Assembly: GCA_044225865.1 (NCBI GenBank)
Contig: JBGAID010000021.1
Span: forward strand, 1-40,279
Reading direction: 5' to 3'
DNA from: Polyangiaceae bacterium
Lineage (GTDB): Bacteria > Myxococcota_A > Polyangia > Polyangiales > Polyangiaceae
Length of the DNA stretch: 40,279 nt
Part shown: piece by piece, positions 1-309 of the stretch
Position numbering within the stretch: the first letter of the stretch is position 1
Layout of the letters: every line of letters begins with the position of its first letter
Notes under the pieces: model-generated
Seen by the model: the letters and a program-made list of their open reading frames with translations, nothing else
What the model was told of the DNA's origin: nothing
The model's database searches: none
Program-made: the position numbers and the translations under genes

Positions 1-5
1 TTCAC

Positions 6-92
6 GGGGGGGTTTGACACCCCCCTTGCGCTTCGCGCACCACCCTCTCAATTCAAGGGGGGGTTTGACACCCCCCTTGCGATTCGCGCACC
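6..92. repeat. Tandem direct repeat (period 51 nt, 2 copies, 1 mismatch). Each copy is a GGGGGGG-TTTGACA-CCCCCC hairpin followed by TTGCG(C/A)TTCGCGCACC. The array may extend upstream of the window.
   Basis: Read directly: copy 1 at 6-41 and copy 2 at 57-92 are nearly identical 36-mers. G7/C6 arms are self-complementary with a 7-nt loop. Confidence 0.8.
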
Positions 93-309
93 CCCCAGTC
101 TTCATCCTATGCCCGGACACGCTAGATCGACCTCGGGGCGGCGGCTACGCTGCCGCGGGTCCCGATCGGGTCCTCAAGAGCTCGTAAACCGTGCACGCTG
201 TCGCCCTCGTCTCTCCCATCATCGGCCTGCCTCGTGCGAATGACGCTCGAGCGGCTCGCCGTTGCAGCGCTTCTCTCCAAACCTGCTGGGCCTCCTCGAA
301 GAGGCGAGG

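Follow-up and report, generated by a model that had tools for sequence, protein, structure and literature searches.

Introduction

BOX elements of Streptococcus pneumoniae and the BIME/REP clusters of enterobacteria are mosaics of non-coding hairpin modules, some of which stand in tandem and vary in number. REP/BIME sequences are imperfect palindromes of 20–40 nt that carry a GTAG-like tetranucleotide, are recognised by RAYT and occur in tens to hundreds of copies, commonly as inverted pairs. CRISPR arrays have unique spacers of ~26–72 nt between their repeats. MIRU-VNTR loci consist of 46–101-bp tandem repeats at 41 loci (PMC3914561).

The tandem array analysed here appears, by analogy, to be closest in kind to the MIRU-VNTR loci, and it may also be likened to modular BOX/BIME regions. 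It lies at the start of the window, i.e. the whole stretch of 40,279 nt that was analysed, which has a GC content of 69% and carries DUF4215, TetR, LysR and MerR/TipAS genes; a protein linked to the array has its closest named relatives in Polyangiaceae MAGs. We propose, with a probability of roughly 0.55, that an uncultured Polyangiaceae-like myxobacterium carries in this array an interspersed minisatellite of MIRU/BOX/BIME-like type, low in copy number and specific to its lineage. The repeat family is previously undescribed, and the kind of object is an ordinary one, the bacterial interspersed tandem-repeat class.

Results

Structure of the array

The tandem G7-TTTGACA-C6 units that a preliminary description had noticed at the start of the window are real: the direct repeats at positions 1–45 and 52–96 are 93% identical over 45 nt, with a period of 51. 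The exact 25-mer GGGGGGGTTTGACACCCCCCTTGCG occurs twice (at 6–30 and 57–81; 0 expected), and none of 100 shuffled sequences reproduced such a match. Positions 1–100 are laid out as TTCAC, unit 1, the spacer TCTCAATTCAA, unit 2 and AGTC. The features considered in this study are as follows.

1–5, plus strand: TTCAC, the tail of the preceding inter-unit spacer; it aligns with the TTCAA that ends TCTCAATTCAA (sister contigs L020 and L011, described below, and window 52–56)
6–45, plus strand: core of unit 1, G7-TTTGACA-C6-T-TGCGC-TTC-GCGCA-CCACCC
6–12, 13–19, 20–25 and 27–39, plus strand: parts of unit 1, namely G7, TTTGACA, C6 and, after a single T, TGCGC-TTC-GCGCA
40–45, plus strand: third C-run of unit 1, degenerate (CCACCC)
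46–56, plus strand: locus-specific 11-nt spacer
57–100, plus strand: core of unit 2, G7-TTTGACA-C6, an imperfect second hairpin, C6 and AGTC
57–63, 64–70, 71–76, 78–90 and 91–96, plus strand: parts of unit 2, namely G7, TTTGACA, C6, TGCGA-TTC-GCGCA and C6
97–100, plus strand: right border AGTC, common to the window locus and to the second locus described below
310–1134, plus strand: gene of an ECF-type member of the sigma-70 family (274 aa), downstream of the array and separated from it by 210 nt
14937–14955, minus strand: separate hairpin G7-ATTCG-C7 with an outer CCTTC/GAAGG stem

The suspicion that the array is cut by the window edge, with more copies upstream, proved correct. Because bases 1–5 are the tail of a spacer, the array must continue by one or more units upstream of the window, which itself holds at least two units plus this tail, and the sister contigs carry two or three units. 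TRF at default settings did not list the window array, since only ~1.9 copies fall inside the window.

The consensus core (40–44 nt) reads G7-TTTGACA-C6-T-TGCGC-TTC-GCGC(A/T)-C6-AGTC, and each core contains a pair of neighbouring GC-rich hairpins along with three G/C homopolymer runs. Hairpin 1 pairs G7 with C6 around TTTGACA or, alternatively, forms 7 bp with a TTGAC loop; in unit 2 it reaches ~9 bp, as the CAA closing the spacer pairs with the TTG past the next C6. Both hairpins fold as initially described, but hairpin 2 (TGCGC-TTC-GCGCA) is perfect in copy 1 only, copy 2 having TGCGA. As single-stranded DNA, the 44-nt unit forms two adjacent hairpins on either strand, with the paired arms GGGGGGT/ACCCCCC around TTGAC and TGCGC/GCGCA around TTC, and with folding energies of −13.1 and −13.5 kcal/mol for the two strands (z = −3.7 and −3.2). 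The window contains three G6-N3-9-C6 sites, two of them in the array, vs 0.08 expected.

The two SNPs in the window's units disrupt hairpin 2 (TGCGA) and the third C-run (CCACCC) without any compensating change, and a comparison of three assemblies showed the C-to-A change at position 42 to be private to the window strain. TTTGACACCCCCCTTGCG is intact in every copy; variation falls in the G7 arm, in hairpin 2 and in the last C-run.

Sister contigs and copy-number polymorphism

The protein encoded at 310–1134 has no Pfam match; Sigma70_r4_2 is present in its homologues, which bear the name of ECF sigma factors, the nearest one being 47% identical and the others being paralogues in different contexts. 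Through the exact sigma protein, a sister contig was identified in each of two metagenome assemblies, WBZT01005639.1 (L011) and WBZX01003132.1 (L020/L017). In these contigs, the array is flanked by the sigma gene on one side and by two divergent FGE-sulfatase genes on the other, its nearest divergent neighbour being an FGE-sulfatase lipoprotein gene, and PEGA/TPR and Ser/Thr-kinase genes follow past this pair.

The array has two units in L011 and three in L020, i.e. the difference is exactly one 51-nt unit. Copy number is therefore polymorphic between strains whose flanks are >99% identical. There is one variable position among the three assemblies in the 214 nt from the array to the sigma gene, vs three differences from the sister assemblies in the 96 array nt of the window. 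In each sister array, the first unit has GGGG or GAGG in place of the G7 arm. Contigs end inside a unit in the short-read assemblies of several unrelated samples, as is expected of a repeat.

At the left border of the array, four substitutions are clustered (L011:3668–3689 vs L020:8465–8486). In L011 they delete the FGE-sulfatase start ATG and create an extra unit-like CCCCCCTTG; this cluster could be due to gene conversion from the repeat or to an assembly error. Gene calls for the FGE-sulfatase extend through the array (L020:6915–8645 and L011:2118–3797), the equivalent in the window being 1–105 on the minus strand.

Regarding the neighbourhood, the contig of the 47%-identical sigma homologue also holds two FGE-sulfatase-domain genes and PEGA/TPR genes (cf. 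L020:2333–9656), and a Ser/Thr kinase occurs in L020 as well as next to another sigma homologue (P0010). The recurrence of this ECF sigma/FGE-sulfatase/PEGA-TPR neighbourhood suggests a functional module. Downstream of the array and ~95 nt upstream of the sigma start, positions 184–212 of the window match GTAAACC-N17-CGTCT, an ECF-type promoter-like motif; judged from its sequence, it may be a candidate promoter through which the sigma gene is autoregulated.

A second locus with identical cores

A scan of the JGI/NCBI metagenome contigs with GGGGTTTGACACCCCCCTTGCG returned the window locus and only one further contig, WBZT01023014.1 (L018). This contig has three units, of which the 40-nt core is identical (40/40) to that of the window family; the spacer is different and 19 nt long, which brings the period to 59, and the flanks are unrelated to those of the window except for the AGTC right border. 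We assign both loci to the same organism because the L018 and L011 loci come from the same metagenome assembly and the HNH and serpin genes of L018 co-occur with the window genes in the same SRA and JGI samples. The initial view of a structured-repeat family, as opposed to a classical promoter, is thus supported, and the finding of three identical-core units at this unlinked locus bears out that the family is dispersed.

Downstream of the HNH gene, L018 has 670 nt of non-coding DNA, which contain the array as well as two 16-nt direct repeats and an 11-bp-stem hairpin. In the same stretch, a second, unrelated tandem array (L018:90–266) has 3.9 copies (95% matches) of the 45-nt unit AGTGTCGCCCGGTGCGCGGCTCATCCGCGCACGCGAAATAAACTG, in each of which GTGCGCGG and CCGCGCAC form a hairpin; this second array is missing from the window and from the locus of the relative mentioned below.

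Also downstream of the HNH gene is a ~110-nt non-coding element (L018:262–400, minus strand; equivalent at L034:2860–3010; L042:3730–3860) that is conserved in the Polyangiaceae MAG GCA_013361525.1. Its CCCGTCG...CGGCCGAGAGCCCG...CGACGGG stem precedes a strong, long-stem T-run terminator, and the stem sequence of this terminator differs between the two genomes yet still pairs. This element gave no match in Rfam, and its sequence makes it a candidate for an unannotated small RNA or 3'-UTR element. GCA_013361525.1, the HNH protein of which is 78% identical, keeps the ~110-nt element and has neither array.

The nearest co-directional element is the FGE-sulfatase start at the window locus and the conserved terminator-bearing element in L018; in both cases, the array is oriented the same way with respect to it and abuts it within ~20–30 nt (n = 2).

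Rarity of the unit

Of 185,579 species-representative genomes, none of the myxobacterial ones contains the 19-nt core G6-TTTGACA-C6; the ten matches to the 19-mer GGGGGGTTTGACACCCCCC in this set belong to Rhodobacterales, Omnitrophota and a PVC bacterium. In JGI metagenomes, the 22-mer occurs at the window locus and the L018 locus only, and it had no match in the viral contigs searched. A profile search of ~200 kb of sequence yielded no further or degenerate copy of the unit, and the translated units matched nothing real among 5.8 billion proteins and 1.84 billion representatives. In the literature, we found neither the repeat sequence string nor a description of myxobacterial REP-like repeats.

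In Rhodobacterales, GGGGGGTTTGACACCCCCC occurs at several loci of MAG contigs (L001, L002, L004 and L006–L010), two of them in one MAG, with a conserved CCCCCG...GGATATTTG downstream. No Rfam RNA was found at these sites, which by their sequence look like a shared strong promoter with a −35 box flanked by a G-run and a C-run. The PVC-group contig (L005) has two matches to the Acido-Lenti-1 RNA (RF01687; 27–73 and 5993–6039), which are unrelated to the array.

Comparison with known classes of elements

The units are direct and head-to-tail, with a size (51 in the window, L011 and L020; 59 in L018) within the ~40–100 bp of minisatellites/VNTRs, and their number differs among close strains, as in this class (2 vs 3). 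They occupy two unlinked intergenic loci in the metagenome contigs and ~200 kb searched.

Palindromes are present, as in REP/BIME sequences, but the 5' GTAG-like tetranucleotide is absent. No RAYT transposase was seen at the loci examined, just two loci are known, and none of the ten units is inverted. Being low-copy, tandem, direct and strain-variable in number, the units are closer to MIRU/BOX-type minisatellites than to the REP-like family initially suggested. The MITE-like alternative also fails: apart from the G/C runs, the flanks show neither terminal inverted repeats nor a target-site duplication, and those of the two loci have only the AGTC on the right in common. Nor are the hairpins terminator-like, as they are not followed by a U-tract on either strand (what follows them is TTGCGCTT on the plus strand, and either TTGAATTG or TCTCCGAA on the minus strand), and a scan for intrinsic terminators did not flag the units.

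As a sigma-70 promoter, the unit would have a perfect −35 TTGACA, but the sequence 16–18 nt on reads GCACC(A/C); a promoter scan of window 1–20000 and of L018 gave 0 promoter-like sites. As a sigma-54 promoter, TGACAC-N5-TTGC has the exact spacing, but GA replaces the near-invariant GG, and one-mismatch matches occur at chance level (3 vs 1.4 expected, a count that 20 of 100 shuffled sequences attained). Rfam gave no match at the gathering score in the window and chance-level matches only (E ≤ 1) in L018 and L020. The array is not a CRISPR, its spacers being 11 or 19 nt long and (near-)identical within an array. A G-quadruplex or i-motif is unlikely: the four minus-strand G6 runs of two units would be joined by loops of 14–27 nt and compete with C-run pairing.

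The hairpin at position 14937

A hairpin related to the array had been placed right after the stop of the reductase-hydrolase gene. This gene (NAD_binding_4 and alpha/beta-hydrolase; 621 aa) is on the minus strand at 14930–16795, with its stop at 14930–14932, and the hairpin at 14937–14955 actually lies within its last eight codons, 4 nt before the stop; the start of an enoyl-CoA hydratase gene is 48 nt beyond. Kinship with the array did not stand up either. The two have G/C runs in common but neither loop nor flanks, an nhmmer profile of the ten units gave no match to this hairpin at E ≤ 10, and the TTCAC lead-in that they seemed to share is a coincidence with the spacer tail, which is TTCAA in every other copy. 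The profile search and the position inside a coding sequence rule out membership of the family. Other G-run/C-run hairpins occur inside coding sequence of the same organism (e.g. L020:7296), and we treat the one at 14937 as a separate, generic GC hairpin.

In the sister contig L029 (WBZT01012001.1), ~50 nt upstream of the enoyl-CoA hydratase start, the G7 arm of this hairpin has a 5-nt deletion (GGGGGGGCGAAT to GGGGAAT). It would frameshift the end of the 621-aa gene and is probably a homopolymer assembly error.

Discussion

A proposed interspersed minisatellite

The evidence argues for the minisatellite. Identical cores are found at unlinked loci, where they were amplified locally with locus-specific spacers. 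The copy number changes by exactly one unit between strains, and the substitution density is raised in and beside the array. The repeat is absent from the orthologous spacer of the relative, and it has no promoter, terminator or RNA-family signature.

By this account, the core would have settled in non-coding DNA at two or more unlinked loci and, at each of them, would have been amplified head-to-tail together with a locus-specific spacer (hence 51 vs 59 nt). Arrays would then grow and shrink by slipped-strand mispairing or by unequal recombination between identical units, for which the three G/C homopolymer runs and the perfect identity of units could be an obvious substrate, and recent spread or gene conversion may have kept the cores identical. 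We infer that the units themselves are neither promoters nor terminators. Their consequences are likely incidental: each unit would add 51 bp of spacing to the divergent FGE-sulfatase/ECF-sigma control region and, if the strand in the direction of the FGE-sulfatase and HNH genes is transcribed, very stable RNA hairpins would form in the 5' leader of the former and in the 3' region of the latter. Constraint on the units is relaxed, as seen from the uncompensated SNPs and from the first unit lacking the G7 arm.

Several points count against the minisatellite. Only two loci are known, a small sample for an interspersed family, and no transposase or other spreading mechanism was identified. The 40/40 identity of the core at these loci could also reflect strong selection on a protein-binding or promoter sequence, the TTGACA is perfect, and the 19-mer lies 17–19 nt upstream of −10-like hexamers in other phyla. 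Finally, the same orientation and ~20–30-nt adjacency at both loci could mean function, though n = 2 is not decisive.

A possible regulatory array

The main rival, which we regard as unlikely though it fares best among the alternatives, is that each unit is an alternative-sigma promoter or the operator of a DNA-binding protein, such that the copy number of the array would tune the FGE-sulfatase and ECF-sigma genes and the small RNA of the second locus. The promoter would be that of the adjacent ECF sigma factor or the sigma-54-like TGACAC-N5-TTGC, and the operator would be the TGCGC-N3-GCGCA dyad. The array does lie within a divergent control region beside an ECF sigma gene, and TTTGACACCCCCCTTGCG is its one part that never varies. 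In addition, G6-TTTGACA-C6, with its perfect TTGACA, precedes −10-like hexamers in the Rhodobacterales, Omnitrophota and PVC contigs, yet no unit of the array has a −10 hexamer 16–18 nt away. Likewise, the exact sigma-54 spacing is offset by the missing GG and by one-mismatch matches that are not above chance. A loose likeness may be read between GAC-N17-CGCA and the ECF pattern AAC-N16/17-CGT, but a separate ECF-like motif (184–212) is already present between the array and the sigma gene. At L018, the forward direction of the units runs into the 3' end of a convergent HNH gene. The combination of 40/40 identity, tandem amplification with spacers and absence in the relative is atypical of regulon sites.

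A possible role at the RNA level

It is improbable that the units act in RNA, in the manner of REP elements, as intrinsic terminators devoid of a U-tract, pause sites or barriers to 3'–5' exonucleases, which was the terminator-like reading of the preliminary description. The hairpins are very stable: the plus-strand RNA of 125 nt folds at −47.2 kcal/mol (z = −2.5) and a 201-nt stretch of the minus strand, which covers the array and both flanks into the FGE-sulfatase start, at −94.7 kcal/mol (z = −2.0), but the minus-strand fold of window 1–125 is unremarkable (z = −1.3). In L018, the array is downstream of the HNH stop and upstream of a strong same-strand T-run terminator, and it is probably co-transcribed; at the window locus, on the other hand, it stands between divergent gene starts, where nothing needs terminating. 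Moreover, neither strand has a U-tract after the hairpins, the terminator scan was negative, and hairpin 2 is disrupted by SNPs without compensation.

A possible lineage-unique cis-element

Also of low probability is a functional cis-element unique to this lineage: a −35-like TTGACA, exposed as the loop of a GC-clamped hairpin or cruciform and lying beside a GCGAAGC-type mini-hairpin, would be recognised by either a structure-specific DNA-binding protein or an alternative sigma factor. In an equally doubtful extension, copy change by slippage would serve as a contingency switch for the ECF-sigma/FGE-sulfatase module and the neighbouring small RNA.

A possible coding repeat or assembly artefact

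We consider it very improbable that the period of 51 encodes a 17-residue tandem repeat (GGCAKRKGGVKPPLELR) forming the N-terminus of the FGE-sulfatase lipoprotein, from a minus-strand ATG at window 105–103. On the minus strand, a single reading frame stays open across the array; it shares the phase of the FGE-sulfatase gene, an in-phase ATG lies just upstream, gene callers add 17 aa per unit (559 vs 576 aa), and L011 lacks the ATG of the MACRAG... start. The period of 59 at L018, however, is not a multiple of 3 and lies in non-coding DNA. GC3 is 0.73–0.78 in the first 55 codons (array plus short flanks) vs 0.89–0.91 in the next 55, and no protein in 1.84 billion representatives resembles the repeat. 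Furthermore, MACRAGAALSMSLSLWVAAC is a complete lipoprotein signal peptide just past the array and must be N-terminal. The FGE-sulfatase extension is thus probably an annotation artefact arising from the in-phase open frame, the true start of the protein being likely this signal peptide. That the array is an assembly artefact of homopolymer-rich sequence is scarcely credible: G/C runs are error-prone, as the 5-nt deletion in the sister copy of the 14937 hairpin and the odd clustered substitutions of L011 may illustrate, but the array is present in three independent assemblies and partly in several independent Logan and JGI contigs.

Significance

If the minisatellite reading holds, this Polyangiaceae repeat family could serve as a VNTR marker for strain typing, and it would explain both the breaks of short-read contigs at array sites and the extension of the FGE-sulfatase by gene callers at 17 residues per unit. 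A regulatory effect of the array on neighbouring genes is unproven; should copy number tune the ECF-sigma/FGE-sulfatase genes, this would be a rare case of repeat-based contingency regulation in a myxobacterium.

Comparison with known systems

The array resembles Rho-independent terminators in its GC-rich stem-loops of 6–9 bp, but it lacks the U-tract and, at the window locus, sits between two divergent gene starts. With the presumed sigma-70 promoters of Rhodobacterales, Omnitrophota and PVC bacteria it has an identical 19-mer in common; these foreign sites are single and followed by GATATT, TAGAAT or GACAAT at 17–19 nt, whereas the units of the array are tandem and have GCACC(A/C).

As in BOX and BIME regions, distinct modules are combined at L018: three copies of the unit, 3.9 copies of the 45-nt unit, the 11-bp-stem hairpin and the two 16-nt repeats. 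Unlike BOX, BIME and REP elements, the array has no GTAG-type tetranucleotide and its orientation is direct instead of alternating; in comparison with REP sequences, its copy number is far below hundreds and no RAYT/Y1 transposase was identified at the loci examined.

The likeness to MIRU-VNTR loci is one of kind, no relationship in sequence being expected. The phylum is another one, two loci are known here, and two GC hairpins and the G/C homopolymer runs dominate each unit. In both cases, direct tandem units, of 51–59 bp in the present family, occupy the non-coding DNA of a high-GC bacterium in strain-variable numbers. Supply et al. (1997) reportedly found some MIRUs to retain a short ORF that is in phase with the genes on either side, and the period-51 array is likewise in phase with the FGE-sulfatase gene.
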